Positions 5,170-21,121 of a stretch of DNA of 21,121 nucleotides are shown piece by piece. Position 1 is the stretch's first letter; every line of letters starts with the position of its first letter. The position numbers and the translations under genes are program-made. The notes beneath the pieces were generated by a model that was given only the letters and a program-made list of their open reading frames with translations, searched no databases and had not been told where the DNA came from. This DNA is from a virus (Duplodnaviria; Heunggongvirae; Uroviricota; Caudoviricetes), in IMG/VR virus record IMGVR_UViG_2690316318_000022. One strand, 5' to 3'.

Positions 5170-5425
5170 TGTGGATAACGCAGTTCCGATTCGCATATTG
5201 CATGTATCAACATGCAAAAAGTTGCTAATGCGGAGTGGAACCACCTGCCCCCACCTGGAACCACCTTTTCCTAACCTTTCCCTCAATCGACTTATATATA
5301 TATATGGGGTTTCTAGTAGAAAGGCGGTTCCAGTGGTTCCAGTGGTTCCGCCCCGCTTGCCACAAGGTCTGCAAGGTGGAACCTCCTTCTCTTTTAGGTG
5401 GTTCCGCGTGGTTCCAGCGGTTCCC
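5170..5425. promoter_or_regulatory. Putative origin of replication: DnaA box, 20-bp palindrome, iterons in both orientations, (TA)6 unwinding element
   Basis: Seen directly: TGTGGATAA (reverse complement of the TTATCCACA DnaA box) at 5170-5178; perfect palindrome TTGCATGT-ATCA-ACATGCAA at 5198-5217; TGGAACC at 5236 and 5256; alternating TA run at 5294-5305; GGTTCC at 5326, 5335 and 5344 (9-bp spacing), GGAACC at 5378, GGTTCC at 5400, 5410 and 5419. Sits at the 3' end of the primase-helicase gene. Confidence 0.65.
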
Positions 5426-7580
5426 AAACCTTGCATTTTTTCCCCCCAATTCGCCTTTGGGCACGCTTATACCCGCAATTTTGCAAAACATTACTAATTC
5501 GCATTTCTTCGCGTTTTCCGATGCGGTCAGGATTTAGCCCAATCGCATCACGCAAAACATCACTTGCGCGTAAAAATTCGCAATTTCGCGGAAGTTCATT
5601 AGTCATCAGGTCTGGCGTGTCGAGCCATTTCTCTACCGTTTCAAGCCAAGCATCCTTGATGGTGTACTGTTCATGGACACTCGCTGCCAGTTGTTCAGCC
5701 TCACGGAACTGGATACCCCCCAGACGCTGAAACACCTCACGAGCCTCAGCCCAAAGTAAAAGGAGATCTCTTTTTATCGCTTTCACGTCGACTTTCGACA
5801 CTTCCACGGGGAGCCAGCGACGGTTACCAGTCTTGTCCGCAAGGAATTCGTCCTCATTGGTGGTACCAACGAACACCAGGCGACGAGGAAACTGGGTGGC
5901 GAACTCCCGGTATTTCGGGATCCAGTTTTCGTGAGTACGCGTCACAAACGCTTTGATTGACTCCAGCTCTTTGGTATTAAGTCCGCGCAGTTCACCAATC
6001 TCTGCCACCAGCCGACCACGCATTTTTCGAGCGAGATCATCGTCTTTTTCGGCAAAAGAGATTTCAGTAAAAAACGCAGGATCAGGGCTCAGTGCCTCCA
6101 CTCCGGAAGACTTACCGCAGCCCTGCGGACCAACGAGGATCGGCACCATATCCGCTTTGATGCCTGGCTCCAGTACTCGCCCCGCCAACGCGGTCCACAT
6201 GTACATAGACACCGCACGGGTATAAGGCGTGTCGGCGGTACCGAAGTGCGTATGGTAGAAACATTCGATGCGCGGCACGCCATCCCACTCCAGTCCGTTC
6301 AGCCAGGTGATCGCTGAATCGAATGGTTGTTCATCGGCTGCAAGTAACACCACATCGCGAATAAGTTCACGACCAACAGGTTTAAATCCCCGCTTTTCCA
6401 TCGTGATGCGCAGGCGCGCATAATCCGCATCGGTGAAAGCCTGCCACTGGCCGGAGCCTGCCTGGGCGAACATGATTTCGTCACGGAACTGGTCAAAGCG
6501 AATATCGATGTCCACGAAGTCAGGACGCACAACGGCTTTTGCCGCGTTGCTGATGGTGGCCTCGATGCGGCCCCATTTGTCGCGCTCGAACGCCGGCAGC
6601 GGTAACGGCTCGGCCACTTCGGTGCTGGTCAGGTCTTCGAAATCGTCGTTGCGGATCCCGATGGCATTAAGGAAATCGCCGTCGTCGCGGTGCGCGCAGC
6701 TGGCGTGCAGGCACTTAAAATGCCCCTGCTCAAAGCCCGCGGTACCACCCGGGAAGTAAACTGTGCTGGTCGGGTCACCGCCAGTGCTGTGACCGTCTTC
6801 AAACGGGCAGCGGATGTAACGCTCTCCGTTCGCTCCGTCACGTAATGTCCAGCCGTTAGCATCCAGATAATCCGCTGTTTCATCCGTGGCGCCAGGCGTG
6901 AACGTTGAGCGATCGCGCATCTTAGTGCTACCAGCTTCAATGGTTACCGACACAGGGAGTTGTTCAGCCAGGCGCTGCCACAGCGTTTCAAGCTGCTCAC
7001 CAGTAATAGCCGGAGGTTCATCCGGCAAACCGCCGTCCCATTCAATACGCGCGCCGCTGCTGTGCGTACCACAGGCAACGAACTGCTGCCCGTTCGCCAG
7101 CAACTCGATAATGCCCATATCCCCCGCCAGGCGATGGATACGCTTACGGAAATCGCCATCAACAGCCAGCAGGTACAGGCATTTGTTACTGTTGGCGCGC
7201 CAGCGACGCGGTGGCAGCTCGCCAAGCAACTGCACCAGCGTTTTGCGAATATCGGCTTGGATGTCTTCGTCTTCGCTGTCACAGTCCAGCGCCAGCCAGC
7301 CATGGCCTGTACGCACGCAGATCCCATAGTCCGGTTCGTTCGACCAGCGGGCAAAATCATGCTCAGTTACGACGTGCCCAGTCCAGTCGTTAATTCCGGT
7401 AGCCAGACGGTTGCGGTTATACAGGCTCGGCGTTTTGCCAAGCACTTTGAGTTTGCTGTTCGGTGAAATAATCGCGCCCGGATTGCACACGACCGGTAGC
7501 AGCTGGTCCGTACGACCCAGCACCAGGTCGAAGTGGAACCATTCGTCAGGCGTCGCCCCCCACGGTTTGCTATCAGACAT
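5394..7580 (-). CDS. Replication initiator: AEP-type primase/polymerase N-terminal domain fused to an SF3 (D5/P4 alpha-like) helicase
   Basis: 728 aa. Acidic DxD-type motif LALDCDSEDED in the N-terminal region; Cys/His cluster CPFEDGH...HFKCLHASCAH; Walker A VGPQGCGKSS and a Walker B-like acidic stretch in the C-terminal half. Translationally coupled to cro and followed by the iteron array. Confidence 0.8.
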   Translation of the reverse strand: MSDSKPWGATPDEWFHFDLVLGRTDQLLPVVCNPGAIISPNSKLKVLGKTPSLYNRNRLATGINDWTGHVVTEHDFARWSNEPDYGICVRTGHGWLALDCDSEDEDIQADIRKTLVQLLGELPPRRWRANSNKCLYLLAVDGDFRKRIHRLAGDMGIIELLANGQQFVACGTHSSGARIEWDGGLPDEPPAITGEQLETLWQRLAEQLPVSVTIEAGSTKMRDRSTFTPGATDETADYLDANGWTLRDGANGERYIRCPFEDGHSTGGDPTSTVYFPGGTAGFEQGHFKCLHASCAHRDDGDFLNAIGIRNDDFEDLTSTEVAEPLPLPAFERDKWGRIEATISNAAKAVVRPDFVDIDIRFDQFRDEIMFAQAGSGQWQAFTDADYARLRITMEKRGFKPVGRELIRDVVLLAADEQPFDSAITWLNGLEWDGVPRIECFYHTHFGTADTPYTRAVSMYMWTALAGRVLEPGIKADMVPILVGPQGCGKSSGVEALSPDPAFFTEISFAEKDDDLARKMRGRLVAEIGELRGLNTKELESIKAFVTRTHENWIPKYREFATQFPRRLVFVGTTNEDEFLADKTGNRRWLPVEVSKVDVKAIKRDLLLLWAEAREVFQRLGGIQFREAEQLAASVHEQYTIKDAWLETVEKWLDTPDLMTNELPRNCEFLRASDVLRDAIGLNPDRIGKREEMRISNVLQNCGYKRAQRRIGGKKCKVWEPLEPRGTT

Positions 7581-7583
7581 GGG

Positions 7584-7808
7584 TTACACCTTTTGCTGCT
7601 CTGAATTTTCGCCGTTTAATAGCCAGTCAGGATCACATTTAAGAACTTTTGCCAATTCAAGAATGAAGCCAGTACGAGTGGCACGACCGGATTCAAGGTA
7701 CTGAACAGACTGCTGGCGCATACCAACCCTTTCCGCCAATGAAGTTTGGGTTATGCCTAAGGCTTTGCGGCGCTCCTTTATACGTGAAGCAAGAGTGGAA
7801 CCGGACAT
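7584..7808 (-). CDS. cro: Cro-like HTH (XRE family) regulator
   Basis: Small HTH protein (LGITQTSLAERVGMRQQSVQYLESG), first gene of the operon divergent from cI. ATG at 7808 has a GAGGAAG SD; the track ORF starts at an upstream GTG (7823) that I consider less likely. Confidence 0.75.
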   Translation of the reverse strand: MSGSTLASRIKERRKALGITQTSLAERVGMRQQSVQYLESGRATRTGFILELAKVLKCDPDWLLNGENSEQQKV

Positions 7809-7828
7809 AAATAACTTCCTCACATGTT

Positions 7829-7895
7829 TACAGGTTTACTTGTAATTAACCCACAGGCACTCTTGTTTGTCAAATACAGATAGCTCTGTAATTAT
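7829..7895. promoter_or_regulatory. Rightward operator (OR)-like region with divergent promoters for cro (minus) and cI (plus)
   Basis: Two 16-bp sites of form TACAnn-N4-nnTGTA: TACAGGTTTACTTGTA (7829-7844) and TACAGATAGCTCTGTA (7875-7890). Minus-strand -35 TTGACA (7868-7873) with a -10-like GTTAAT; plus-strand -35 TTGTCA (7867-7872) with a -10-like AATTAT (7890-7895). Confidence 0.6.
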
Positions 7896-7917: not shown

Positions 7918-8547
7918 ATGAATCTTGCTATCCGGGCCAAAAAGCGCAGAACAGAACTCAATTTAACTCAGGTCGAAGTTGCTAAACGAGCGGGCATAAG
8001 CCAGCAGTCAATAGAAGCTATAGAGAACGGCAAAACGCTAAAACCACGTAACCTTCTTGCTTTAGCATCGGCTCTGGAGTGTGATCCTAAGTGGTTACTA
8101 CTCGGGGGTGATGTTGTCACGAATTTCAACTACGGAGCCCGAAGGGTGCCTGTTCTAAGCTATGTACAAGCCGGAGCTTTCACAAGCACTGAACAACTTC
8201 ATGAAGGCGGTGATTTCGAATACATCCTGACAACAACGGAATTATCAGAGCGTTCGTTTGCTCTCCGTATACGCGGAGATTCGATGGAGCCAGAATTTAA
8301 AGAGGGTGACATCGTTATAATTGACACTGACGTATACCCTACCCCTGGCGAATTTGTTGCGGCATGCAATGGTAGCCATGAAGCAACGTTCAAAAAGTAC
8401 CGCCCGGTAGGGATTGGCGCTAAAGGTGAGGAAGATTTTGAACTTGTTCCCTTAAACAGCGATTACCCTATTTGCCGCTCCTGGGAAAAACCTATCAAGA
8501 TTATTGGAACAATGGTGGAGCATCGCATATTCCGCCGAAAAAGATAA
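7918..8547 (+). CDS. cI: CI-like repressor: N-terminal HTH plus C-terminal S24 (LexA-like) autopeptidase domain
   Basis: HTH (LNLTQVEVAKRAGISQQSIEAIENG), candidate Ala-Gly cleavage site in VQAGAF, Ser nucleophile motif GDSMEP and a downstream Lys. ATG at 7918 has a strong AAGGAG SD; the track ORF begins upstream at 7867. Confidence 0.85.
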   Translation: MNLAIRAKKRRTELNLTQVEVAKRAGISQQSIEAIENGKTLKPRNLLALASALECDPKWLLLGGDVVTNFNYGARRVPVLSYVQAGAFTSTEQLHEGGDFEYILTTTELSERSFALRIRGDSMEPEFKEGDIVIIDTDVYPTPGEFVAACNGSHEATFKKYRPVGIGAKGEEDFELVPLNSDYPICRSWEKPIKIIGTMVEHRIFRRKR

Positions 8548-8569
8548 TCGCATCTTCGCTTCAAACAAA

Positions 8570-8591
8570 GAGGGCTATGGCCCTCTTTTTT
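8570..8591 (+). terminator. Rho-independent terminator after cI
   Basis: GAGGGC-TATG-GCCCTC followed by TTTTTT, 23 nt after the cI stop. Confidence 0.7.
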
Positions 8592-8633: not shown

Positions 8634-8677
8634 TACAAGAATACCTGTTGACTTAATTACAGGTTTACTTGTACTTT
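8634..8677 (+). promoter_or_regulatory. Leftward operator (OL)-like site and PL-like promoter directing plus-strand transcription
   Basis: TACAGGTTTACTTGTA at 8658-8673 is identical to the OR site at 7829-7844; a degenerate second site TACAAGAATACCTGTT lies at 8634-8649. -35 TTGACT at 8648-8653 and a -10-like TACTTT at 8672-8677. Confidence 0.5.
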
Positions 8678-8921: not shown

Positions 8922-9491
8922 TTACTGGTTGTAAGGATCGTAATCCGTGATTGCCTTCCCCGGATTTTCATCTTCAGAAGGCAGTCGGGCCTCTAAAGCA
9001 TTTCGGTTGAACAGATAGGAAGCCCTACAGTACGAACAAACCATATTAACGGCTCGCCCAAGGCCTGGCTTAGTAACCAGTCCTTCCGCTTGCAATATAG
9101 ATTTTCTCTTTTGCTCGTAGCAATTGGGACAAATATAAACCGGAGATTGGTCAGCATCTGCAGAAAGCTTGCTGCGATAGACCAGAGTCCCCCGCATAGG
9201 CTGGTAAAGTTCATAGCTCGCCGCTTCAGCGGCCCAGTTCTCTTGCTTTACTTTCTCATTTTCCAGTTCAACAATTTTCTCCTTAGCCGCAATCAGCAGC
9301 TCCTGAAGCGACATTTGCTGCATCTGAACATCCATTAGCTTATCGAGTAAGATGTGCGTCTTCTCTTTAACTGCATAGTCTACAGTCAGATTCTGAATCT
9401 CTCTTGCTGCTCCAACCGCGCTTTTAATTGCTCCTCCCACGCCGGATAACGATTCAGTTATCCGGGAAAGAATTCCTTTTTCTTCAGACAT
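8922..9491 (-). CDS. Hypothetical protein (189 aa): predicted coiled-coil N-terminal region plus C-terminal CxxC...CxxC zinc ribbon
   Basis: ATG at 9491 with a GAGAGAGA SD-like. Heptad-like charged region (LQELLIAAKEKIVELENEKVKQENW), then CPNC...(about 30 aa)...CSYC. Antisense to the PL-driven operon, adjacent to the immunity region. Confidence 0.6.
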   Translation of the reverse strand: MSEEKGILSRITESLSGVGGAIKSAVGAAREIQNLTVDYAVKEKTHILLDKLMDVQMQQMSLQELLIAAKEKIVELENEKVKQENWAAEAASYELYQPMRGTLVYRSKLSADADQSPVYICPNCYEQKRKSILQAEGLVTKPGLGRAVNMVCSYCRASYLFNRNALEARLPSEDENPGKAITDYDPYNQ

Positions 9492-9502
9492 ATCTAATCT
9501 CT

Positions 9503-9552
9503 CTCAAACTGTAGGGGTGAAGAGATATTAGACGATTTCTCACTGTAGGGGT
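9503..9552. repeat. Two direct repeats TCTCA(A)ACTGTAGGGGT in the promoter region of gene 8922..9491
   Basis: ACTGTAGGGGT at 9508-9518 and 9542-9552, each preceded by TCTCA, 34 bp apart, between the divergent gene starts. Confidence 0.45.
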
Positions 9553-9630
9553 ACAAGGAGAACCACCTCGCCTGATGTGGTTAAAAGCAGGCACTCGATG
9601 ATATCCATGTAATTGCTGTGTGTAGTCTTT

Positions 9631-9656
9631 GCCCGCCGCAAGTGACGGGCTTTTTT
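9631..9656 (+). terminator. Putative plus-strand terminator (tL1-like) between the PL leader and the first early-operon gene
   Basis: GCCCG-(10-nt loop)-CGGGC followed by TTTTTT. Short stem, hence moderate confidence. Confidence 0.45.
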
Positions 9657-9715
9657 ATGTCTGAAAGCGCACTCGCAACAGCGCGCTCCCCGATATGAAA
9701 AAAGGAATACAACCG

Positions 9716-9865
9716 ATGAAACCTGAACACATCCATCGACTGACGGGGCGCGATGTTCTCCGTTATCGCCGTAAAAACTTCGATTTGATGACCGGTCTGG
9801 CCGTTGCCACTGCGCTCGGTCTGATCATCACTTTCATTCTCCTTGTAGCGAGGACCACAGTATGA
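9716..9865 (+). CDS. Small tail-anchored membrane peptide (49 aa); not in the ORF track
   Basis: ATG at 9716 with AAGGAA 9 nt upstream. Hand translation [49 protein letters not shown]. Its stop overlaps the start of the next ORF (ATGA). Confidence 0.45.
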   Translation: MKPEHIHRLTGRDVLRYRRKNFDLMTGLAVATALGLIITFILLVARTTV

Positions 9866-10764
9866 GTTTAGAAACCAGTCTCGAACTTAATAATCAACTT
9901 CTGGCACAACATAATGCGCTGCTTGAACGTCTTATCCGCACGATGGCATCAGGTATTGTTATGCATCCTGACACGATTTCACGAGTGCAGGAATGTCGGG
10001 ATACAGCAACTGAAACTGAAAATATGTCAGCGGCAATGACACTGGATGATCTGGAGTTCAGCGACGTTATCGCACTGGCTGTTTTCTACCCGGTAGCCAC
10101 CCCTATCACAGAAGACATGCTGCAACGTGCTGTTGCCTACCGTGATGCTGAAGGCGATAAACGAGTAGTTCAGATTGATGCTCTCGACAGCGCATTGCAG
10201 GGCGTCAAACGAGCCAGGGCACTGCATAAACCCGCTCTTCTGGACCTGTCCCGTAACATTCTTAAGTTCTGGGACGACCTGCCAACCATCGGCGAGCGAC
10301 GTGCTTTTGCCGAGCAACTACTTGATGCACCTGCAGATGGGCGTGATGAAGTTAAGCCGAAAAAGGCCAGTAACAAAGATGGAGAACGCACGGGGCCGTT
10401 TTACGTCAAAAATGTATCCGGCACAGCAGCCAGTGAACTCCACACCTTACGCAAGTTGAACGAGATGCTTAAAAAAGGCCATATCGAGATCAACCGTGTT
10501 GAGTACCTTCAGCTGCAGGAAGAATTTGCACGCAGAGACGCAGCAAATTCCAGCCAGAATAATGACGCCAAAGATGACCATACAATTGATTTCGCGGCAC
10601 TACGCAAACAAGCTGAAGGGTTGATCCTCCAGTTAGCAAAAGGGGGTTACCGGGCAGAAGCTATTGCAATTCTGGAAAAACAGGGAGCCAGGAAACTTGG
10701 TGAAGTAACGGATGAAAATCTCGCTGAAGTAATCACCCTGGCTGAAAAAGCACTGGAGGGTTAA
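9862..10764 (+). CDS. Hypothetical acidic protein (300 aa), first large gene of the early operon
   Basis: Track ORF translationally coupled to flanking genes. No motif recognised. Confidence 0.55.
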
Positions 10765-10766
10765 TC

Positions 10767-12068
10767 ATGCCAGACGTTCATGCACAACTTTCTCCATCAT
10801 CAGCGCATCGATGGATGCGCTGCCCAGGAAGTCTGGCGCTGGAGGCCACACAACCGGATAAAGAAACAACTTTTGCAATCGAGGGCACTGCAGCGCACGC
10901 GCTTGCTGAAAAAGTTCTACGAAACAGGCAAAGCCACCCGGAACACTACGCCGGATGCAATGTTTCTATGTTTCTCGGCTCATACCCCCTTCGCGAAAAT
11001 CCTGATGATACATCTGGCCCACAGGTGGATGATGAAATGGTCGAAGCCGTTGGCCGGTATGTTGATACGGTCTGGACTCTTGCACAGAATAATGAACTAT
11101 TGGTTGAACAACGTGTTGATTTTTCACATATAACGGGGGTGGAAGAATCTTTCGGAACTGCCGACGGCATAATCATCGCTGGTAACGAATTACAAATCCA
11201 CGACCTGAAATATGGCAAAGGCGTCCGCATTGATGCAGAACAAAATGAGCAACTACAACTGTATGCTCTGGGTGCGCTCGAACAATTCAGCATGCTGTAT
11301 GACTTTGAGACTGTAAGATTATTTATTCACCAGCCAAGGCTCAACCACGTTTCAGAATGGTCGTTAACCGTGCAGGAACTTCAGTCTTTCGGTAAACGAG
11401 CACAGGAGGCCGCAACCAGTGCGATCCTTGTTCTCAATATTGCTGAATGCGAAGGCATTGAGACACTACCGCTGGAAAACTTCATACCTGGAGAAAAACA
11501 GTGCCGCTTCTGTAAAGCAAAAGCTATTTGCACTGCCCAGAAAATGCAGCATTTACAAACAGCGGCCAGCGACTTTGAAGATCTGACAAAGCCTGTCAGC
11601 GAAATAATCACCAATGCCAGCGCACGTGTACCTCTGTTAACCATTGAGCAGCTTGCGGAGATCTATAGCCAGGCCGACTTTATTGAGTCCTGGCTAAAGG
11701 CAGTACGGGACCGGGTTCACAATGAACTCAATGCCGGACATCCGGTACCGGGGTTTAAACTGGTAACAGGAAAACAAGGTAACCGGGCCTGGAGTGATGA
11801 AGAGGCAGCTCGCGCACTTCTGAAGGACCAGTTCAGGTACAAAACTGAAGAAGTATTCGACTTTAAACTTATTAGTCCCACAAAAGCCGAAAAACTTATC
11901 AAAAAGGCCAGTCCACGCCGTTGGTCAAAAGTCGAGGCACTGATAACACGAGCTGATGGTAAACCAACCGTCGTTCCCGAGTCAGACCCACGCCCCGCAC
12001 TCAATATCAACCCTGTAAATGATTTCGACGACGTATCCGACGATACGCTAACCGCAGACCTCATCTGA
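10767..12068 (+). CDS. DUF2800-family PD-(D/E)xK nuclease (Cas4/RecB-like, Cys cluster)
   Basis: N-terminal [15 protein letters not shown] signature, nuclease core HDLKYGKG with QLQLY (QxxxY), and C-terminal [10 protein letters not shown] cysteine triad; GGAGGG SD. Family assignment from memory. Confidence 0.7.
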
Positions 12069-12083
12069 TTTAAGGAAATACCC

Positions 12084-12632
12084 ATGAAACTGAAGCTGAA
12101 CAATGTTCGTCTGGCCTTCCCGTCTCTGTTTGAAGCTAAAACTGTAAACGGCGAAGGCGATCCGCGTTTCTCCGCAGTATTTTTAATGTCTCCCAAACAC
12201 CCACAACTGGAAGAAATCCGTAAAGCTATGAAGCAGGTAGCGAAGGAAAAATGGGGAGAGAAGTGGGAGCCCATTTATAACCAGCTGGAGAAAAAACTCA
12301 ATCTGTGCCTGCATGATGGTGATGAAAAAGCAGAGTATGAAGGCTTCCCCGGCAATTTCTTCCTGAATGCTGCTAACAAAGCGCGCCCAGCTGTTCTTGA
12401 TCGCGATCGTTCGCCACTAATTCAGGCTGATGGACGTCCCTATGCAGGGTGCTATGTAAACGCCGTTATCGATATCTGGGCACAGGACAATAATTTCGGT
12501 AAACGCATTAATGCCTCACTCGGCGGAGTCCAGTTCCTGCGAGACGGCGATGCATTCGCTGGCGGCGGAGTGGCAAGCGCTGACGATTTCGACGATATCA
12601 GCGAAGGTGCTGATGCTGAAGCACTAATTTAA
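12084..12632 (+). CDS. DUF2815-family protein (putative ssDNA-binding partner of DUF2800)
   Basis: N-terminal NVRLAFPSLFE motif and acidic C-terminal tail (DDFDDISEGADAEALI); conserved pairing with DUF2800 and a family A polymerase. Confidence 0.65.
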   Translation: MKLKLNNVRLAFPSLFEAKTVNGEGDPRFSAVFLMSPKHPQLEEIRKAMKQVAKEKWGEKWEPIYNQLEKKLNLCLHDGDEKAEYEGFPGNFFLNAANKARPAVLDRDRSPLIQADGRPYAGCYVNAVIDIWAQDNNFGKRINASLGGVQFLRDGDAFAGGGVASADDFDDISEGADAEALI

Positions 12633-12683
12633 AAATATTCATCCCCCAGCTACGTGCTGGGGTATCTCATGAGGGAAAGTATA

Positions 12684-13325
12684 ATGTCACAGCCCGTATT
12701 AACTAATCACCTTAAAACTCAAATCATCAATAACGCACTTGAGAAAGCGGGTATTCCCAAACGTAAATCAGCACTACGAGCTGCTCGTGTTGAATGGGCC
12801 GAACGTGTTCGGCTTGCAGCTATCGGGGGCGTAGAGAAAGAAGCTGAAATATTAAAAAATATAAAAAAGATTGAATCCATGGTCACAAAAATCCCTAATT
12901 CATTAAAAACCAATAGTTCTTTAATTCGAAAAGATTGCTGCATATATCTCAATCTGGCTGGAGCCAGAGCAAACATTTATTTCAATGGCAACTACAGAGG
13001 TTATGAATCAGGAGCCCCCGAGCATATTAATAAAATAGCACCTGCAGAATTTACTCTACTTGGCGAAGATCCTCTGGTAACGGAGTTTTATAGCTTTGAT
13101 GCTCTCTACACACAAATTAAAAGTGATGAAACCGAAATCATACAGAACGTCAGCGCGGCTCTAAATAAAGTTCGGACAGTAAAACGATTACTGGATGTAT
13201 GGCCCGAAGCTAAAGAACTGCTTCCAACAGACGCACCGCCAGTCCCTTTAGCACCAGCAGTACATCGAGAGACATTAAATGAAATGATAGGCCTTCCTAC
13301 CAATACAGTGTCTGATACTCAATAA
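12684..13325 (+). CDS. Hypothetical protein (213 aa from ATG 12684; the track ORF starts at GTG 12654)
   Basis: SD GAGGGA 7 nt upstream of the ATG at 12684. Moderately AT-rich. 3' end overlaps the convergent gene by 7 nt. Confidence 0.5.
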   Translation: MSQPVLTNHLKTQIINNALEKAGIPKRKSALRAARVEWAERVRLAAIGGVEKEAEILKNIKKIESMVTKIPNSLKTNSSLIRKDCCIYLNLAGARANIYFNGNYRGYESGAPEHINKIAPAEFTLLGEDPLVTEFYSFDALYTQIKSDETEIIQNVSAALNKVRTVKRLLDVWPEAKELLPTDAPPVPLAPAVHRETLNEMIGLPTNTVSDTQ

Positions 13326-14008
13326 CAAGGGGGATGCTTATTATATGATTTTGAACATTTTACAATCTCGTTAAGAGGCGTGAAATCAAAATCTCTGAAT
13401 AACACATCAGGATACTTCGCTCTTGCTTTATCCAGCAAACCAGTTAAAGTATTTTTTGTGTTACCCAACATTGTATTAACCGCCACTACATGTCTAATTT
13501 CTGGAGGTTTATCTATACCACCAGAAATTGCTTCATTAAGAACCGACGCCAGTGGGGTTTGTCCCTTACTTGTTGAATCCCACAGCGTCATTAACAGACG
13601 AGCTGCGTCTATAAATAGCTTTTTGTCAGCATTTGGCTTGACAGTAATACCGGAACTACCTGAGCCAGAACCGGAACGTTCTATTGCTGCACTGGTATCC
13701 GATTTCATAGGATTAAATAACGGAAGCTCTGTACAACCGATACGCCGAATGAAATCCTTTGCAACATCTCTACCACAGAAAAAAGCCCCTGTACAATTTT
13801 CATCAGAGCGTTTTTTAAATGAAAAACAATAGTACTGATCGGTTAACGGATAACCGGAATAACTGGTTTTAGTTTGTCCAGTAATAAGTTTCAGGTGTGC
13901 AACAGGCTGAATAATAAAATCCCGAACTATCGCATCTTTTATGTCGTTACCACGGTGACAATAATATTCAGGTAATCCATTAGGCTGTCTCTTATTACCC
14001 ACAGTCAT
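13319..14008 (-). CDS. Hypothetical two-domain protein (229 aa): Cys/His-rich N-terminal region, SGSGSGSSG linker, C-terminal domain
   Basis: Strong SD AAGGAGA 7 nt upstream of the ATG at 14008. AT-rich by eye (about one third GC in sampled stretches). Antisense to the surrounding replication operon. Confidence 0.6.
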   Translation of the reverse strand: MTVGNKRQPNGLPEYYCHRGNDIKDAIVRDFIIQPVAHLKLITGQTKTSYSGYPLTDQYYCFSFKKRSDENCTGAFFCGRDVAKDFIRRIGCTELPLFNPMKSDTSAAIERSGSGSGSSGITVKPNADKKLFIDAARLLMTLWDSTSKGQTPLASVLNEAISGGIDKPPEIRHVVAVNTMLGNTKNTLTGLLDKARAKYPDVLFRDFDFTPLNEIVKCSKSYNKHPPCY

Positions 14009-14069
14009 TAGTTGTCTCCTTTAATTCATGATATCTAGCATTTAACCATATACCATATGAGGATATTTT

Positions 14070-16133
14070 ATGTCCAATATACTATGGGGCGACCTGGAAA
14101 CCTATTGTGACATTCCGATCAACAACGGTACCCATGCGTATGCCGAAGGCGTTGAAGTGATGCTTTTCGCATGGGCTATCAACGACGGGCCAGTAAACGT
14201 GTGGGATACCACTGCCGGTGGTGGTATTCCACACGGCTTATACGAAGCAATCGCAGACCCTGAAACCCTGCTTTATTTCCATAACTCTCACTTCGACCGC
14301 ACCGTTCTACGTTATGCAATGCCGCGACTGGCACCGCCAGTCGAACGTTGGCGCGACACGATGGTGCAGGCGCTGGCGCACGGTCTCCCGGGGTCTCTGG
14401 GAGAACTCTGCGAAATACTAGGCGTCCCGCAAGACAAAGCGAAGGACAAAGAAGGTAAAGCGCTGATCCAGCTGTTCTGTAAGCCACGCCCGAAAAACAG
14501 CAAACTGCGTCGGGCCACCAGCAAAACCCACCCAGAAGAATGGCGGCGCTTTGTTGCTTACGCCGGACTGGATATCGAGGCAATGCGCGAAGTCTGTAAA
14601 CGTCTGCCGAAGTGGAATTATCAAGGGACAGAGCTGGCGCTCTGGCATCGTGATCAGCAGATCAACGACCGGGGCGTCTGCATGGACATGCAACTCGCGC
14701 GCGCTGCGATCGAAGCGGTAGACCAGGAGCAAAAGCGCCTGGCAAAGCGTACACAGGAAATGACTGATGGCGAAGTGCAGGCAGCCACACAACGAGACGC
14801 GTTGATTAAGCACATTGTTGAATCCTACGGTGTGGAGCTACCAGACATGCAACGCAGTACTCTGGAACGTCGTATTGCCGACCCCGATTTACCATCTGCC
14901 GTGAAAGAACTGCTGGCTATCCGACTGCAGGCCAGTACTACCAGCACCAGTAAATACAAGGCACTGATGAAAGGCGTAAGCCACGACGGGCGCTTACGCG
15001 GTACGCTACAGTTCTGCGGGGCGTCACGTACCGGTCGTTGGGCCGGACGGCTATTCCAGCCCCAGAATCTTCCCCGCCCTTCACTAAAACAGGAACAAAT
15101 AGACGAAGGCATCGAAGCACTGAAAGCCGGATGTGCAGACCTGCTGTTTGACAATATCATGGAACTAACCAGTTCAGCGTTACGTGGCTGCATTATCGCG
15201 CCAACAGGCAAAAAACTGGTGGTAAGTGACTTGTCGAACATTGAAGGCCGTATGCTGGCATGGCTGGCAGGAGAAGAATGGAAACTGAATGCATTCAGAG
15301 AGTACGACGCCGGAACGGGTCCGGACTTATATAAACTGGCGTATGCAAAAGCTTTCGATATTGCACCAGATGATGTTGATAAACACATGCGTCAGATCGG
15401 TAAAGTCATGGAACTCGGTCTGGGTTATGGTGGTGGTGTGTCGGCCTTCATCACTTTTGCACTGGTTTACGGTCTCGATCTCGACGAGCTGGCAAACGCT
15501 GCACTGCCAAACATTCCCCGCGATGTTATCCGCGAGGCGAAAAGCTGGTACGGCGAATCGGTTAAACGTAAGTCAACCTACGGCCTTTCTGAACGGGTAT
15601 TTATCGCCTGCGACTCACTTAAACGTCTCTGGCGCCGGGCGCATCCCGCGACCTGTGATTTCTGGTACGAACTGGAGCGCACCGTCCGCACTGCAATCGC
15701 CACACCGCAAAAAACATTGTATTGCGGTTATCTTAAAATCCGCCGCGATGGCGCGTGGCTGCGCATACAGCTACCATCCGGACGCGCTGTATGCTACCCG
15801 TCTCCGGTTATCGAAAAAGGGAATATCACCTACATGGGTGTTAACTCTTATTCGCGTAAATGGCAACGACTCAAAACCTACGGCGGAAAGCTGGTGGAGA
15901 ACGTCACCCAGGCGGCCGCCCGCGACGTTCTGGCCGGAAACATGCCGCTTATCGAAGATGCCGGTTACAGCATTGTGCTGACGGTACACGACGAGGTGAT
16001 CACCGAATCACCTGACACAGAAGATTTCAACGATAAAGCGCTTTCCGCGCTTCTCTCCACTAACCCCGAATGGGCGCCCGATATCCCACTGAACGCTGGC
16101 GGTTTTGAGGCGTACCACTACCGTAAGGATTAA
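14070..16133 (+). CDS. Family A DNA polymerase (Pol I-like) with 3'-5' exonuclease domain
   Basis: Exo I motif GDLETY (DxE); polymerase motif A DLSNIEGR; motif [17 protein letters not shown]; motif C VHDEV. 687 aa. Confidence 0.9.
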
Positions 16134-16138
16134 CTCCT

Positions 16139-16354
16139 ATGTCATTTAAATACCGGGATAATCCACTTTATTACAGGGCTGCAAGGGAAGCTTTGCGACT
16201 TGAACAATCCGGCGAATATGACCGGGCAGCGGAGGTCTGGGCAAAAGCCAACCGCGAATCACATCACGAACTGAATCAGGAATGGAGTGAACGCAGATCT
16301 GATTTTTGCCTGATGCAGAACATGCGTGAAAAGCGTAAGGCGGTCGAAGAATGA
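16139..16354 (+). CDS. Hypothetical small protein (71 aa)
   Basis: Track ORF with AAGGA SD, translationally coupled to neighbours. Confidence 0.45.
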   Translation: MSFKYRDNPLYYRAAREALRLEQSGEYDRAAEVWAKANRESHHELNQEWSERRSDFCLMQNMREKRKAVEE

Positions 16355-16650
16355 TCGTTTACGTTGCCGGGCCGATGAGCGGTTACGAGCAATTTAACCG
16401 CCCGGCCTTTCATTCCGCAGCAAAGAGGCTAACGGACAAGGGATATGTTGTGCTTAACCCCGCAACTTTACCCAATGGTTTGACACAGGCTCAGTACATG
16501 GACATCTGCCTCGCAATGCTTCGCTGTGCCGATACGATTTATATGCTCAAAGAGTGGGAGTACTCTGCCGGCGCACGTGCAGAAAACGCGTTGGCAGAGA
16601 AACTGGAATTGAATGTGCTTTTTGAAGAGTGGGATTCAGATGGCCTATGA
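16351..16650 (+). CDS. DUF4406-family protein (nucleoside 2-deoxyribosyltransferase-like fold)
   Basis: N-terminal VYVAGPMSGYEQFNRPAF...VVLNPA pattern characteristic of DUF4406, from memory. Confidence 0.6.
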   Translation: MIVYVAGPMSGYEQFNRPAFHSAAKRLTDKGYVVLNPATLPNGLTQAQYMDICLAMLRCADTIYMLKEWEYSAGARAENALAEKLELNVLFEEWDSDGL

Positions 16651-16909
16651 ACGTGAAAACCTAATCGAGAAGCATCTCGTCGCCGAAGTGAAAAAGGCTG
16701 GTGGGGTCGCCTTTAAGTTCATATCACCTGGTCGCCGCTCGGTACCAGATCGCATTGTTCTGCTACCTGGCGGCCGTCTCGTTTTCGTTGAATGTAAATC
16801 TCCCGGCAAGCCACCACGGCCTGACCAGTTGCGCGAGCATGAACGTCTGCGAAAGCTGGGCTTTACCGTGGTAGTACTGGATAGCAAAAATTTAGAGGGG
16901 ATATTGTGA
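16640..16909 (+). CDS. VRR-NUC domain nuclease
   Basis: PD-(D/E)xK-like core DRIVLLPGGRLVFVECKSPG. Start assigned to the ATG at 16640, overlapping the preceding gene's stop; the track ORF starts at 16613. Confidence 0.7.
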   Translation: MAYERENLIEKHLVAEVKKAGGVAFKFISPGRRSVPDRIVLLPGGRLVFVECKSPGKPPRPDQLREHERLRKLGFTVVVLDSKNLEGIL

Positions 16910-16914
16910 GACAA

Positions 16915-17640
16915 TCATTCTGAGCGATTTTTCTTGAGCTTAGAAGCTTTTAAAAAACATACTTTTAGTTGTTGTGTTTCTTTTATGCTTACAGGAATTA
17001 ATTTCCCCTCAATTCCTTCGACACTCATAAATTCAGAGCTATTTTTTTTACAGTTCCCCAAGACAAATTTTCCGTTATAGCTTTCGATAATATAAGCATC
17101 ATATTTTTTAGAATAAAAAAGAGGCTCATCTGATAAGTATGCCCATGCCCACCCAAGGACTGAAGGAAGCATTGCTATGGATATAAAAAGCATAACCCCA
17201 TGAGTTTTGTTTTTTATTCTAAATTCATTCCTAATAAAAACAGATACTGCCCTGACACTGATAGGGCTAATAAATCCCAATAGTATTGCTTGGGTAGCCA
17301 CATCCCTTATGGATTTTTCATAAAGGTATGAGCTACCGCCATATAAATACATTGTCCAGTATGAAAGCAAAGAGGCCAAAATGAAGAAAAATAAATACAC
17401 CCACCATGGAATATTCTTCTCTTCAGTATCAATATGCAGCAAAGCGACTAAGGTGCACAAAAGTCCTAATGCAATAACAGAAAATTTAACTATTTCCTCA
17501 ATCCCAATAGAAATAAAACTTACAGGGAATCCATAAAATGAGCAGTACCCTTTGTAAAAAGAAAAAGCCATAAAATAAAGGGCGGCCAAGAGAACCGTTG
17601 TAATTGATAAATCTTTTACATTCATGATGTTCAAGAGCAC
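16915..17640 (-). CDS. Hypothetical multi-pass membrane protein (241 aa), AT-rich antisense insert
   Basis: AAAGGTG SD-like before the ATG at 17640. About four or five hydrophobic segments in the first 170 aa and a charged C-terminal tail. About one third GC in sampled stretches, against roughly 55% in the flanks. Convergent with VRR-NUC and divergent from SNF2. Confidence 0.6.
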   Translation of the reverse strand: MLLNIMNVKDLSITTVLLAALYFMAFSFYKGYCSFYGFPVSFISIGIEEIVKFSVIALGLLCTLVALLHIDTEEKNIPWWVYLFFFILASLLSYWTMYLYGGSSYLYEKSIRDVATQAILLGFISPISVRAVSVFIRNEFRIKNKTHGVMLFISIAMLPSVLGWAWAYLSDEPLFYSKKYDAYIIESYNGKFVLGNCKKNSSEFMSVEGIEGKLIPVSIKETQQLKVCFLKASKLKKNRSE

Positions 17641-17663
17641 CTTTCTAATCAGGGATTTTCTTC

Positions 17664-19055
17664 ATGATAACTTTTAAACCACGTCCCTACCAAGATCTCA
17701 TCATCAATCATCAAATCGAGACCCTGCGCGGCAACATCTGGGCAGGGATGGGGATGGGTAAAACCGTAGCGACACTCACCACGCTGGAAGATCTTTTCAT
17801 GGCTGGAGCAGAAACACGCCCCGCGCTGGTCCTCGCGCCGCTACGCGTTGCAGCAAGCACTTGGCCTGATGAAGCTGTTAAATGGGGGCATCTGCGTAAT
17901 ATTGAGGTACAGCCGATCATCGGTAACGCCAAAGCGCGCTCTACAGCGCTGGCGAACAGCAACGCGAGCGTGTTCACAATCAACTACGATAACCTTGTCT
18001 GGCTGGTTGAAGAATTGGGAGAACGATGGCCGTTCGGTACTGTCATTCCAGATGAAAGCACCCGGCTAAAATCCTTCCGGCTGCGAGGTGGTGGTAAGCG
18101 CGCGGCGGCGCTGGGCAAAGTGGCGCACAAGTATGTCCGGCGCTGGATAAATCTCACCGGTACGCCAGCACCGAACGGCCTGGTAGATTTGTGGGGACAA
18201 TCGTGGTTTGTGGACCAAGGGCAACGTCTCGGGCGCACTTACGGCGCGTTTACCTCACGCTGGTTCAAATCGATACAGTTTCCGGGGCAGAGCTGGACCA
18301 AACTGGAGCCTTTTGCTCACTCACAGGGTGAAATACAGCGAGCGTTAGCCGATGTGACCCTCTCGCTGGATGCGGCCGACTGGTTCGATATCAAAGACCC
18401 CATCCATAACGTAATCCGCGTGGATATGCCGCCGAAGGCCCGTCAGCAGTATCGTGAAATGGAAAAGGAAATGTTCCTCGAGCTGAATGGCGAAGGCATC
18501 GAAGCACCGAACGCCGCGGCAAAGACACTGAAGTGTCTGCAAATCGCCAGCGGCGCAGTATACACAGATGACACCGGAAGTTGGTCAGAACTGCATGACA
18601 CCAAACTACAGGCGCTGGACAGCATACTGACCGAAGCAGCTGGCGCACCTGTGCTGGTTGCTTATCACTGGAAACACGATCTTGAACGCTTGCTTAAAGC
18701 ATTTCCTCGCGGTCGTCACCTCGACCAGGATCCACAGACACTACGTGACTGGAATTCCGGAAAGATTCCTGTTCTCTTTGCACACCCAGCCAGCGCGGGC
18801 CACGGTCTGAACATGCAGGACGGCGGAAACATACTGGTATTTTTCTCACATTGGTGGGACCTGGAGCAGTATCAGCAAATTATTGAACGTATCGGCCCAA
18901 CCAGACAGATACAGGCCGGACACAATCGTCCGGTATTTATTCACCACATTATTGCTGCCGACACTATGGACGAAATGGTGATGGAGCGGCGCAACTCAAA
19001 ACGAACAGTGCAGGACATCCTGCTCGATGCCATGAAAAAGAGAGGTATAGCATGA
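17664..19055 (+). CDS. SNF2-family (SF2) helicase/ATPase
   Basis: Q-motif PRPYQ, Walker A GMGMGKT, DExx-type motif VIPDEST, C-terminal helicase domain; 463 aa. Confidence 0.85.
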   Translation: MITFKPRPYQDLIINHQIETLRGNIWAGMGMGKTVATLTTLEDLFMAGAETRPALVLAPLRVAASTWPDEAVKWGHLRNIEVQPIIGNAKARSTALANSNASVFTINYDNLVWLVEELGERWPFGTVIPDESTRLKSFRLRGGGKRAAALGKVAHKYVRRWINLTGTPAPNGLVDLWGQSWFVDQGQRLGRTYGAFTSRWFKSIQFPGQSWTKLEPFAHSQGEIQRALADVTLSLDAADWFDIKDPIHNVIRVDMPPKARQQYREMEKEMFLELNGEGIEAPNAAAKTLKCLQIASGAVYTDDTGSWSELHDTKLQALDSILTEAAGAPVLVAYHWKHDLERLLKAFPRGRHLDQDPQTLRDWNSGKIPVLFAHPASAGHGLNMQDGGNILVFFSHWWDLEQYQQIIERIGPTRQIQAGHNRPVFIHHIIAADTMDEMVMERRNSKRTVQDILLDAMKKRGIA

Positions 19056-19252
19056 GCGAGAAACCCGACGATTTACTCACCCCGGATGAAGTATGCCAAA
19101 AGTTAGGTATTACACAGAAAACGCTATGTGAGTGGAATATTAAGCATCGTCATCGGGCTATCCTGGCACCAATTCGTTTCAGTGCAAAAGTAGTTCGTTA
19201 TGAGCGCCGAAATGTCGACGCTTTCATTCAAAAATGTCGCAGCCGGTATTAA
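19052..19252 (+). CDS. AlpA-type HTH protein, probable excisionase
   Basis: 66 aa with an AlpA-like pattern (LLTPDEVCQKLGIT.KTL..W...........RF...VVRYERR.VDAFI); adjacent to and convergent with int. Confidence 0.7.
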   Translation: MSEKPDDLLTPDEVCQKLGITQKTLCEWNIKHRHRAILAPIRFSAKVVRYERRNVDAFIQKCRSRY

Positions 19253-20646
19253 CCTCGCCGCCGTAGCAATGCCACCTGCGCAAGTATGCTCCGCTCGTGA
19301 GCCTCGAAAGCTTCGCGCTTCAACGCAATCTCTTCCTGTAAAATCTCATCAGAAAAGTCGTAATGTTCTGCCATCGGGTCATCTGACTTGCTGGAGTGGT
19401 GAAGGCAAAGGAGGCTGATTTCCCTTCGGTCTGAGCGGGAATAGCCTCTTTCCTTCATCAAGGCAATAACATTGCTCTTAAGGAATTTACGGCACATCGT
19501 ATTAAATGCACCGTCTTTCCCTTTAACAGTCCCATCATGTTTTATTCCTTTTACAGCCCCGTCCGGGCTGTATGTTTTCACCAGCTTATCCAGTGATCGT
19601 TTTGAAAATGGCTGCATTGGATCACGTGGCTGCAAAAATACATAATCCCTGTTGCACTCAGGAACTGAATCACGCCAGGCTTTCTGCTCGTCGATAATCC
19701 GCCGGATCTCAGGCGTTATCGGCAGCCGGAAAGCCTTTTGTGTTTTCATAGCCCCTCGCATGCCGATAACCCCTTCCGGATAAACAATTTCACCAGCCTC
19801 CTCGTGAACGTAGTCCCAGCGCAGGTTATGGACATTAATCGGACGAACGCCAGTGATGATCATGAAGCGAACAGCATTCTTCTGGTGTACAGAGGTGCAG
19901 GCAGCAACATTGAGCCAGAGTCGGGCGATTGATTCAATATCGGTAAAAAGCCGTGTGGGGGCGGGTTTCTGTACGCGGGAGGAAACATAATCATCTGGCA
20001 AACTGGCGGCAACATTGCGGCCGTTGCAAAGAGTAGGTGCGCAGAACTTCCAGAACCGACGGAGCTCGGCAAACAACTCCAGGGCGTTATTGTTCGAGCG
20101 AGTGGCGATCCACTCGTCCAGCACTTCCACCAGCCGACTGTATGTTACGTCGCTGAACACCTCGCGCTCGCCGAACGTTGCTTTAATCCGGTCGATACGC
20201 ACCCCGTAGGTTGTGAAACTGTCCGGGCTCAGCTTCTGACGGGCTACTTTGGCTTTGAGGTCATCCCGGTACATTTCCAGCGCTGCATGTACGGACTCTG
20301 CCCGCAGTCCACCGTCAGCCATACCTAGTGCTTTTTCGCGCGCCAGCTGGATAGCGAGCTCCGGCCACTCGCCGAGCTTTTTACCTTTGAGGCCCATCTT
20401 TTTTGGAAACTCGGCGTAAAATGTAACCTTACCGGCTTTGCTGAAATCGATACGGAGATAGTTCTCTTTTTCGTATTTGGAACGGCGAGCCACGCCGGAA
20501 GCAGCGAGGATGATTTTGGCGGCAGCAACACAGATTTTCATGTGTGCGCTGGTATAGGGGGGTTTACAGGCGTCCCATTTTTCAGAAGCGGCTAAAACAT
20601 CGTCATTATTGGGGCTATCCAGATTATGTGTTACAGTGCGCGGCAT
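19249..20646 (-). CDS. int: Tyrosine recombinase, lambda Int family integrase
   Basis: Box I-like ITGVRPINVHNLRWDYV and box II-like LLCLHHSSKSDDPMAEHYDF (compare lambda Int HLLGHKSDTMASQYRD, catalytic Tyr). Start assigned to the ATG at 20646 with AAGGA SD; the track ORF starts at TTG 20652 and an internal ATG at 20541 is an alternative. Confidence 0.8.
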   Translation of the reverse strand: MPRTVTHNLDSPNNDDVLAASEKWDACKPPYTSAHMKICVAAAKIILAASGVARRSKYEKENYLRIDFSKAGKVTFYAEFPKKMGLKGKKLGEWPELAIQLAREKALGMADGGLRAESVHAALEMYRDDLKAKVARQKLSPDSFTTYGVRIDRIKATFGEREVFSDVTYSRLVEVLDEWIATRSNNNALELFAELRRFWKFCAPTLCNGRNVAASLPDDYVSSRVQKPAPTRLFTDIESIARLWLNVAACTSVHQKNAVRFMIITGVRPINVHNLRWDYVHEEAGEIVYPEGVIGMRGAMKTQKAFRLPITPEIRRIIDEQKAWRDSVPECNRDYVFLQPRDPMQPFSKRSLDKLVKTYSPDGAVKGIKHDGTVKGKDGAFNTMCRKFLKSNVIALMKERGYSRSDRREISLLCLHHSSKSDDPMAEHYDFSDEILQEEIALKREAFEAHERSILAQVALLRRRG

Positions 20647-20851
20647 TCTCAATCCTTATCTGCGTAGGCGCAGAAAACAAGCTCACACATACAAGTCTTT
20701 TCTACGGGACAAAATGCAATGTGTTGCGGTTTTGTGTTGCTGGACTGAGTTTATCAAGGTTAAATACACTGGATCAACATACAGTAAGTTAATGACAGTA
20801 AAACATACAAACTCGATACAACTTACTGATTTTAAAATGATTTAACGGTAA

Positions 20852-21121
<270 letters not shown>

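Follow-up and report, generated by a model that had tools for sequence, protein, structure and literature searches.

A polymerase operon and a divergent primase-helicase as the probable halves of one replisome in an Escherichia coli myovirus prophage

Here, we describe the replication and recombination genes on a 21,121-nucleotide stretch of viral DNA (IMG/VR record IMGVR_UViG_2690316318_000022; Caudoviricetes), which at its full length we call the window. On one side of a phage repressor switch runs an operon for a DUF2800 nuclease, a DUF2815 protein, a family A DNA polymerase (PolA), a VRR-NUC endonuclease and an SNF2 helicase, and on the other side lies a VapE-type primase-helicase with a cluster of iterons. 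Family assignments, catalytic motifs and the gene content of related loci indicate that this set is very probably one known, self-contained module for replication and recombination, split across the repressor switch. As such it is a typical example of a kind already known, neither a second nor a new system, while the genes in three variable slots of the operon, DUF4406 among them, are mobile cargo outside the replisome. The value of this reading is chiefly that of a correction: the first-pass annotation of the window had presented the polymerase operon as a second module alongside the primase-helicase, and annotating the two as separate systems would mislead.

Results and Discussion

Gene content and layout in related phages

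Eighty IMG/VR loci, the best matches to the DUF2800 protein of the window at 38-99% identity, were fetched and searched with the window proteins and their orthologues. Co-occurrence was counted in the 40 loci, referred to below as the relatives, that have no less than 7 kb of sequence on the upstream side of DUF2800 and 8.5 kb on the downstream side. There, DUF2800 is accompanied by DUF2815 (40 loci), PolA (39), VRR-NUC (40) and SNF2 (39). VapE was found in 35 of these loci and lies upstream on the opposite strand in 32, which speaks directly against a polymerase set that is second to the primase-helicase. The five core genes of the plus strand keep a fixed order in 67 loci, in which the gap between DUF2800 and DUF2815 has a median of 19 bp (16 bp in the window); the other junctions vary from about zero up to 3048 bp between DUF2815 and PolA, 5871 bp between PolA and VRR-NUC, and 2664 bp between VRR-NUC and SNF2. 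Across phages at large, tblastn detects DUF2800 in 1,763 of 50,697 records.

Published work describes the same association. A survey of Firmicutes annealing proteins reports a "duf2800-gp2.5-polA module" in phages of Firmicutes and in most of the Gram-negative phages that it examined, and classes the DUF2800 and DUF2815 pair as an exonuclease with a single-strand annealing protein (PMC8093625). The replication module of phage Enc34 comprises a primase, a transcription factor, a polymerase, VRR-NUC, a helicase and hypothetical proteins, among them the DUF2815 protein that binds single-stranded DNA (the SSB), the solved structure of which has the fold of T7 gp2.5 (PMC5686142). The DUF2800 protein of phage Bas14 resembles the end-resection nucleases AdnA and RecB (bioRxiv 2026.07.14.737667). 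The window contains the full complement of the DUF2800-gp2.5(DUF2815)-PolA module: the nuclease, the adjacent SSB, PolA downstream, VRR-NUC and SNF2, and a primase-helicase of VirE/VapE type. Together, the co-occurrence of VapE, the conserved divergent layout, the corresponding layout of phages BcepC6B and Smarc4 and the single operon of phage StauST398-2 (both compared below) point to two switch arms that carry the two halves of one replisome.

Could the operon nonetheless be a separate module for recombination-dependent replication or repair, placed on the leftward-promoter (PL) side of the switch, beside an autonomous initiator and iteron system on the rightward-promoter (PR) side that works with the host polymerase? 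It is true that the gene sets occupy opposite strands and have different promoters, DUF2800 with DUF2815 falls in the published class of exonuclease and annealing protein, and VRR-NUC and SNF2 are typical of repair and recombination. However, we regard this alternative as improbable, given the company that VapE keeps with the polymerase set in the relatives and the divergent layout that most of them retain; published descriptions also count the primase in the same replication module (PMC5686142). In StauST398-2 everything is in one operon, and the window encodes no other polymerase or clamp loader for the primase-helicase to serve. Nor is any primase-helicase of this family known to recruit Pol III. 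That the prophage is instead a decayed, non-functional remnant in which the polymerase operon is no longer used is very improbable indeed: low-GC insertions on the opposite strand do break up the operon and a terminator-like hairpin stands ahead of it, but the catalytic motifs are all intact, the core open reading frames (ORFs) are all full length, three deposited phage genomes (vB_EcoM-611R5, 689R2 and 606R2) carry the same operon at 97.5% identity over 73% of the region, and a full annotated set of structural genes is present in both the prophage of E. coli MLI108K3 and the 611R5 record.

Several points weigh against a single, split replisome. The 80-locus sample leans to relatives and its loci are not phylogenetically independent, and five of the 40 loci gave no match to VapE, where either another primase or too weak a match is possible. 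PolA is very divergent from the solved PolI structures, with a Protein Data Bank (PDB) match at the region of motifs A and B only (E values of about 1e-5 to 1e-6), and no processivity factor was identified. In addition, the putative PL is separated from the operon's first ORF by about 1 kb that is antisense to the accessory gene p189, and a hairpin followed by six uridines (9633-9657, plus strand) lies after the putative PL and about 60 bp 5' of that ORF. Given the hairpin and the antisense stretch, the true promoter of the operon may differ from the putative PL, and antitermination may be involved.

Core proteins and their proposed roles

The genes were checked by profile searches against Pfam, PHROG, NCBIfam and PADLOC, and catalytic residues by alignment with four distant phages (Table 1). 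Pfam and PHROG bear out every family that the first-pass annotation had named, all on the plus strand, and with them its proposal that the repressor-proximal left arm carries an operon for polymerase-based DNA metabolism. SNF2 was correctly named as a family, but its gene lies outside the interval 9716-16909 in which it had been placed. Nmad5, the ANR regulator, the opposite-strand orphans at 13319-14008 and 16915-17640, p49 and p300 had gone unlisted.

In DUF2800, residues D133, D146, K148, Q162 and Y166 are invariant, as are four cysteines (C19, C246, C249 and C255) arranged as in Cas4 and AddB; its profile found nothing significant among PDB sequences, and its PADLOC matches to Cas4 and DruK are only marginal. 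DUF2815 is now named Enc34_ssDNA-bd in Pfam. PolA retains Y164 and D168 of Exo III, D387, E392 and R394 of motif A, and R441 and K445 of motif B as invariant residues, and its DxE, NxxxFD and VHDE motifs can be read straight from the sequence. A close kinship of PolA to the aminoadenine polymerase DpoZ was also considered; no chain named DpoZ is among its PDB matches. D37, E51 and K53 of VRR-NUC are invariant, and the Pfam match of this protein is weak (20.3 bits against a cut-off of 23.8). The PADLOC matches of SNF2 are generic SNF2 matches to DpdE, ZorD and DrmD only. The NCBIfam scan yielded the ANR family and generic PolA fragments only.

From the family assignments, the conserved motifs and the gene order, we infer the following division of labour. 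The VapE primase-helicase would recognise the iterons, open the origin and prime; PolA, with its proofreading domain, would extend the primers while the gp2.5-like SSB would coat the lagging strand. DUF2800, as a 5' end-resection nuclease, and DUF2815 would act as an exonuclease and annealase pair that leads to recombination-dependent replication and the formation of concatemers. The structure-specific nuclease VRR-NUC might resolve or trim branched DNA before packaging, and the SNF2 translocase might remodel stalled forks.

The DUF2800 and DUF2815 proteins end in matching acidic tails (DFDD...LI; encoded at 12020-12068 and 12585-12632), the DUF2815 tail being DDFDDISEGADAEALI. Among 73 distinct pairs, the pattern [DE]F[DEAS] falls within the 24 C-terminal residues of 52 DUF2800 and 67 DUF2815 proteins, but of no SNF2 (58 tails), PolA (63) or VRR-NUC (63) protein. 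The two final residues match within a phage in 30 of the 73 pairs, where permutation gives 9.4 on average and 18 at most. The pattern and even these two residues co-vary between the two proteins of a phage, although kinship of the loci raises counts of this kind. By analogy with T7, where gp2.5 and gp4 dock on gp5, this suggests that the two tails may share one docking partner. The matching tails are a new supporting detail of modest value, and offer a testable hypothesis of replisome assembly.

Genomic context

The window covers the early region and the left end of a temperate myovirus prophage of E. coli that is kin to vB_EcoM-611R5. Its minus strand carries the terminase, lysis genes, a Q-like antiterminator, the primase-helicase of 728 residues and a cro-like helix-turn-helix (HTH) gene; its plus strand carries a cI/LexA-like repressor followed by the long operon (9716-19252). 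RefSeq E. coli chromosomes contain DNA that is nearly the same (98.8% identity), and the region is matched in about 159 of 5,426 complete E. coli genomes, in 65 of those over at least 80% of its length. Of the complete E. coli genomes, about 3% carry the prophage family, enterohaemorrhagic E. coli (EHEC) strains of serogroups O26 and O111 among them. In MLI108K3 the prophage sits between yfhL and yfhH, and the remainder of this prophage has annotated head, tail, baseplate and tail-fibre genes only. A literature search found no publications on phages of the vB_EcoM-611R5 type. Otherwise, the module has been studied only structurally, via the SSB of Enc34; in E. coli, the prophage could provide a tractable model of it.

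Table 1. Features of the window in order of position, with the searches or readings that support them.
Feature	Position	Strand	Evidence and remarks
Iteron cluster GGTTCCA/TGGAACC, putative origin	5236..5426	.	overlaps last VapE codons
Primase-helicase (VapE)	5394..7580	-	Pfam VapE-like 2.3e-60; phrog_256 helicase 2.1e-145; phrog_1156 primase 3.8e-40 (residues 5-316); PDB 7pds 8.7e-34
Cro-like HTH repressor, first gene of rightward (PR-like) operon	7584..7823	-	Pfam HTH_3 2.7e-14
Two operator-like palindromes TTACA-N8-TGTAA	7828-7845 and 7874-7891	.	between cro-like and cI-like genes
cI/LexA-like repressor (HTH + S24 peptidase)	7918..8547	+	Pfam Peptidase_S24 2.9e-18; HTH_3 1.1e-14
Intrinsic terminator 3' of repressor gene	8567..8588	+	pattern scan
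Putative PL promoter TTGACT-N18-TACTTT	8648..8677	+	read by eye; third operator copy (8657-8674) in spacer
p189, accessory gene, coiled coil and C-terminal CxxC…CxxC zinc ribbon	8922..9491	-	phrog_1244, unknown function; 3/40 relatives
p49, small protein with hydrophobic C-terminus, first operon gene	9716..9865	+	phrog_11981, unknown function; 12/40 relatives
p300, conserved, unknown function	9862..10764	+	phrog_6784 6.5e-180; 17/40 relatives
DUF2800, Cas4/RecB-like PD-(D/E)XK exonuclease, acidic C-terminal tail	10767..12068	+	Pfam 8.8e-110; PDDEXK_1 3.8e-10; phrog_69 exonuclease
DUF2815, T7 gp2.5-like ssDNA-binding/annealing protein, acidic C-terminal tail	12084..12632	+	Pfam Enc34_ssDNA-bd 7.6e-44; phrog_112
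Nmad5, slot 1	12684..13325	+	Pfam 2.2e-54
Orphan of 229 residues, soluble, slot 1	13319..14008	-	no Pfam/PHROG/PADLOC/NCBIfam match; GC 0.40; 27 E. coli genomes
Family A DNA polymerase (PolA), N-terminal 3'-5' exonuclease	14070..16133	+	Pfam DNA_pol_A 1.2e-13 (residues 275-457 only); phrog_17 9.8e-125 full length
ANR-family (AraC negative regulator, Aar-like) protein, slot 2	16139..16354	+	NCBIfam NF033650 1e-19; 19/40 loci
DUF4406, 99 residues, NDT/DNPH1-like fold, slot 2	16351..16650	+	Pfam 6.3e-34
VRR-NUC PD-(D/E)XK endonuclease	16613..16909 (RefSeq start 16640)	+	phrog_93 endonuclease 9.9e-32; Pfam 6e-4
Multi-pass membrane orphan of 241 residues, slot 3	16915..17640	-	no Pfam/PHROG/PADLOC/NCBIfam match; low GC (0.40-0.41); 22 E. 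coli genomes
SNF2-family ATPase/helicase, last core gene	17664..19055	+	Pfam 1.3e-11; phrog_62 6.7e-158; PDB SNF2/Rad54 matches
Excisionase-like HTH_17 protein	19052..19252	+	profile searches
Tyrosine integrase	19249..20652	-	prophage end abuts host gene yfhL (20861-21121)

Primase-helicase, iterons and the immunity switch

Judged by its motifs, the primase-helicase is composed of an N-terminal AEP-type prim-pol, a zinc-finger-like cluster of Cys and His residues and a VapE/D5-like helicase domain. The AEP and zinc-finger calls were read from the sequence (LALDCDSED and CPFEDGH...FKCLHASC, respectively), as was the Walker A motif GPQGCGKS. Six copies of the heptamer GGTTCCA, some in either orientation, lie within 5236-5416. 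Over the whole window there are nine, where 2.6 would be expected, and no shuffle reached nine. The primase-helicase and the iterons that the first-pass annotation had placed on the PR side thus both exist. At its very end (…EPLEPRGTT, 5396-5426), the primase-helicase gene has codons that double as iteron copies, such that the same bases encode the C-terminus of the protein and probable binding sites, and this C-terminal peptide is kept in several relatives.

Between the repressor genes and at the putative PL, the palindrome TTACA-N8-TGTAA occurs three times, compared to 0.62 copies expected in the window, and all copies are in the immunity region. The corresponding two places in a heteroimmune relative (L001) carry a palindrome particular to it. 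These operators and the promoter-like site would fit a leftward-type promoter under repressor control, and the label "PL operon" seems reasonable. A pattern scan for sigma-70 promoters and terminators called neither the putative PL nor the hairpin at 9633-9657, and both are low-confidence readings by eye.

What happens between the putative PL and the operon? The gene p189 lies there on the opposite strand, so transcription from PL would run antisense through it. L001 is without p189; a small ORF for a zinc ribbon, on the plus strand, takes its place. The direct repeat ACTGTAGGGGT occurs twice, 34 bp apart, in the region upstream of p189 (9509-9558). The hairpin that follows is weak, with five GC pairs, a 10-nucleotide loop and a fold z-score of -0.35, and L001 keeps it (9917-9941) with an altered loop. 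Its role may be that of an attenuator or of a terminator that needs read-through. An Rfam scan of the whole window, which would cover put- or nut-like and other read-through RNAs, gave no match at gathering thresholds, and no N-like gene was found to go with the hairpin.

Variable slots and their cargo

Three variable slots separate fixed core genes (12633-14069, 16134-16639 and 16910-17663). In the window, the first holds Nmad5 and an orphan of 229 residues, the second ANR and DUF4406, and the third a membrane orphan of 241 residues. The slot region of phage 611R5 (L002, 1458-6670) has a TIR-domain protein of the CAP12/Pycsar-effector type (253 residues) in place of ANR and DUF4406 in the second slot, and different orphans in the first and third.

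Nmad5 is found in seven of the 40 relatives, in none of the 22 that have less than 55% DUF2800 identity to the window, and in 59 of the approximately 159 E. coli genomes that bear the module. Its structure model is a helical bundle without an enzyme-like match, and its profile found nothing significant among PDB sequences. The motif WPEAKELLP is invariant among homologues, which also have in common a C-terminal peptide, LNxMIGLP, within a low-confidence tail (13130-13325); the tail is probably disordered, as far as the model can tell, and the LNxMIGLP peptide looks like a short docking motif rather than an active site. We rejected Nmad5 as a specific partner of this PolA clade, as it is also found in lambdoid phages whose replication is of the O/P type, such as mEp235 and SPN3UB.

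Both opposite-strand orphans are always at least 99% identical in the E. coli genomes that carry them, and they are candidate morons expressed in the lysogen, for instance for exclusion or defence. A PADLOC scan of Nmad5, DUF4406, ANR, p300 and the three opposite-strand orphans gave no match to a defence family. ANR belongs to a family of virulence regulators and sits here inside a replication operon, in a prophage carried by EHEC strains and strains of the enteropathogenic E. coli type.

DUF4406: fold, distribution and possible function

The first-pass annotation had assigned DUF4406 to the nucleoside deoxyribosyltransferase (NDT) superfamily, and this assignment is upheld by an AlphaFold2 model (pLDDT 87) and its Foldseek matches, at TM scores of about 0.7 and probabilities of 0.99-1.0. 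The matches listed are chains of NDT, MilB/BcmB, BlsM and DNPH1, save one conserved protein of unknown function, and the best of them, all NDT, MilB/BcmB or DNPH1, have a probability of 1.0; MilB and BcmB are N-glycosidases of cytidine monophosphate. At the sequence level, the DUF4406 profile found nothing significant among PDB sequences, and some homologues have weak Pfam matches to PF05014, DUF1937 and DUF7768. Compared to DNPH1 (also Rcl), MilB, BcmB and the NDTs, which have 130-160 residues, DUF4406 has only 99, lacks the C-terminal segment and shares 15-23% identity.

D51, S72, G74 and E78 are invariant in 30 DUF4406 homologues, and the resulting S-x-G-x3-E arrangement is the S87/G89/E93 pattern of rat DNPH1, an equivalence by residue spacing and not by superposition. 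The rat enzyme binds the 5'-phosphate through its Ser and Gly and contacts the sugar through its Glu (PMC3834327). The spacing of D51 and Y4 resembles that of D62 and Y7 in the Chroococcidiopsis NDT. From this pattern, DUF4406 is most likely a nucleotide-monophosphate N-glycosidase of the DNPH1/MilB kind that would act on the nucleotide pool, and not a nucleoside transferase.

Does DUF4406 belong to the polymerase module? It is present in seven of the 40 relatives and in two of the 22 below 55% DUF2800 identity, and together with ANR in 91 of the module-bearing E. coli genomes. A neighbourhood survey, as had been proposed with the first-pass annotation, found it beside ead/eae-type genes in Rac-SA53 and in Pseudomonas phage MD8; in Shewanella phage 1/41 its neighbours are replication genes, and in mycobacteriophage Halley it is fused to MazG. 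With matches in 667 phage records, many of them from actinobacteriophages and vibriophages, and an inverted orientation in some relatives of the window prophage, we rejected a tie to the polymerase module; the superfamily stands, and the gene is a mobile one found in varied contexts.

What might such cargo do? One reading is that the slots are hotspots of phage-host conflict, in which DUF4406, as a 5'-monophosphate N-glycosidase, would edit or drain the nucleotide pool, either removing a non-canonical deoxynucleoside monophosphate or destroying a nucleotide-derived immune signal or its precursor. We consider this reading doubtful. It draws on the TIR-domain protein, also of an N-glycosidase fold, that a near-identical phage has in the same slot, on a point mutation in Nmad5 that lets Dhillonviruses escape the Tmn defence, and on fusions of DUF4406 to the MazG pyrophosphohydrolase in some mycobacteriophages. 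The pattern of cargo in the slots (DUF4406, Nmad5, ANR and the TIR-domain protein) is a small lead of modest value.

A role in DNA modification, which the first-pass annotation had raised for DUF4406, is unsupported. In its fullest form, DUF4406, Nmad5 and a dedicated polymerase would put a non-canonical base into virion DNA, as in the thymidine hypermodification of Pseudomonas phages M6 and SN1. In the M6/SN1 cassette, a phage PolA does have Nmad5 upstream of it (PMC9476957), as in the window; DUF4406 keeps, judged by residue spacing, the catalytic Glu of its NDT/DNPH1/MilB fold, and hydroxymethylated pyrimidine nucleotides are, according to PDB titles, substrates of DNPH1 and MilB. However, Nmad5 is all that the window shares with the M6/SN1 cassette: the hydroxymethylase, the 5-HMUDK kinase, the aGPT-Pplases and the radical SAM and PLP enzymes of M6/SN1 were neither found in the window nor annotated in the rest of the MLI108K3 prophage, and the same holds for any hydroxymethylase, nucleotide kinase, aGPT-Pplase, glycosyltransferase or methyltransferase (profile searches for the window). 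Both genes are sporadic among near-identical prophages, the induced phage 611R5 has neither, and both occur in lambdoid phages that lack the polymerase. Nmad5, besides having no enzyme-like fold, is dispensable in Dhillonvirus, where it can be deleted (PMC11846954). As the pathway enzymes were not found, the idea of DNA modification has no support beyond two family names, and we think it highly unlikely.

Comparison with known systems

The working logic of the window set is that of T7, without the window set being a T7 member. T7 gp5, gp4, gp2.5, gp6 and gp3 are a family A polymerase, a primase-helicase, an SSB with an acidic C-terminal tail, a 5'-3' exonuclease and an endonuclease that cuts junctions, and the DUF2800 and DUF2815 pair may be compared with gp6 and gp2.5. 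In contrast to T7, the window has an AEP primase, as read from its sequence, with a VapE-type helicase domain instead of the DnaG/DnaB-like gp4, a Cas4/RecB-like nuclease instead of a FEN-like one, VRR-NUC instead of endonuclease I, and SNF2 in addition.

The likeness to lambda Red is one of position and logic. As the first-pass annotation had observed, the genes lie on the PL side, where lambda has exo, bet and gam; at the position of exo and bet, the early-left operon includes an exonuclease and a gp2.5-like annealing protein or SSB. However, the two systems are analogues without homology, and the window pair is embedded in a full replisome; on the ORFs between 9695 and 19055, no Pfam or PHROG match was found to the YqaJ/lambda-Exo, RecT/Bet or Gam families.

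The Staphylococcus aureus Triavirus StauST398-2 shares the DUF2800 exonuclease, the Gp2.5-like protein, PolA, a VirE primase-helicase, VRR-NUC and the SNF2 "hel", a set that corresponds to the duf2800-gp2.5-polA module (PMC8093625). Its genes form one rightward operon, with about 5.9 kb of cargo between PolA and VRR-NUC, and are 32-35% identical to those of the window. Enc34, Chivirus and Jerseyvirus (for example Salmonella phage SE2) likewise have the same set of primase-helicase, DUF2800, DUF2815 SSB, PolA, junction nuclease and SNF2. These are virulent or non-lambdoid siphoviruses, in which no cI/cro switch stands between the halves; in SE2 the genes are adjacent and the polymerase is split into two ORFs.

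The split itself recurs in Burkholderia phage BcepC6B (BPP-1-like, Ryyoungvirus) and Serratia phage vB_SmaS-Smarc4, whose DUF2800 proteins are 43% and 37% identical to that of the window, respectively. In both, the primase and a cro-like gene occupy one strand, and a cI-like gene, DUF2800, DUF2815, PolA, a VRR-NUC-type gene, an SNF2/DEAD helicase, an HTH protein and the integrase occupy the other. These two phages differ from the window phage in virion type and host. The BcepC6B integrase, unlike that of the window, is co-directional with the operon, and the slots of BcepC6B hold a DNA methyltransferase and RusA where those of the window hold Nmad5, ANR, DUF4406 and orphans.

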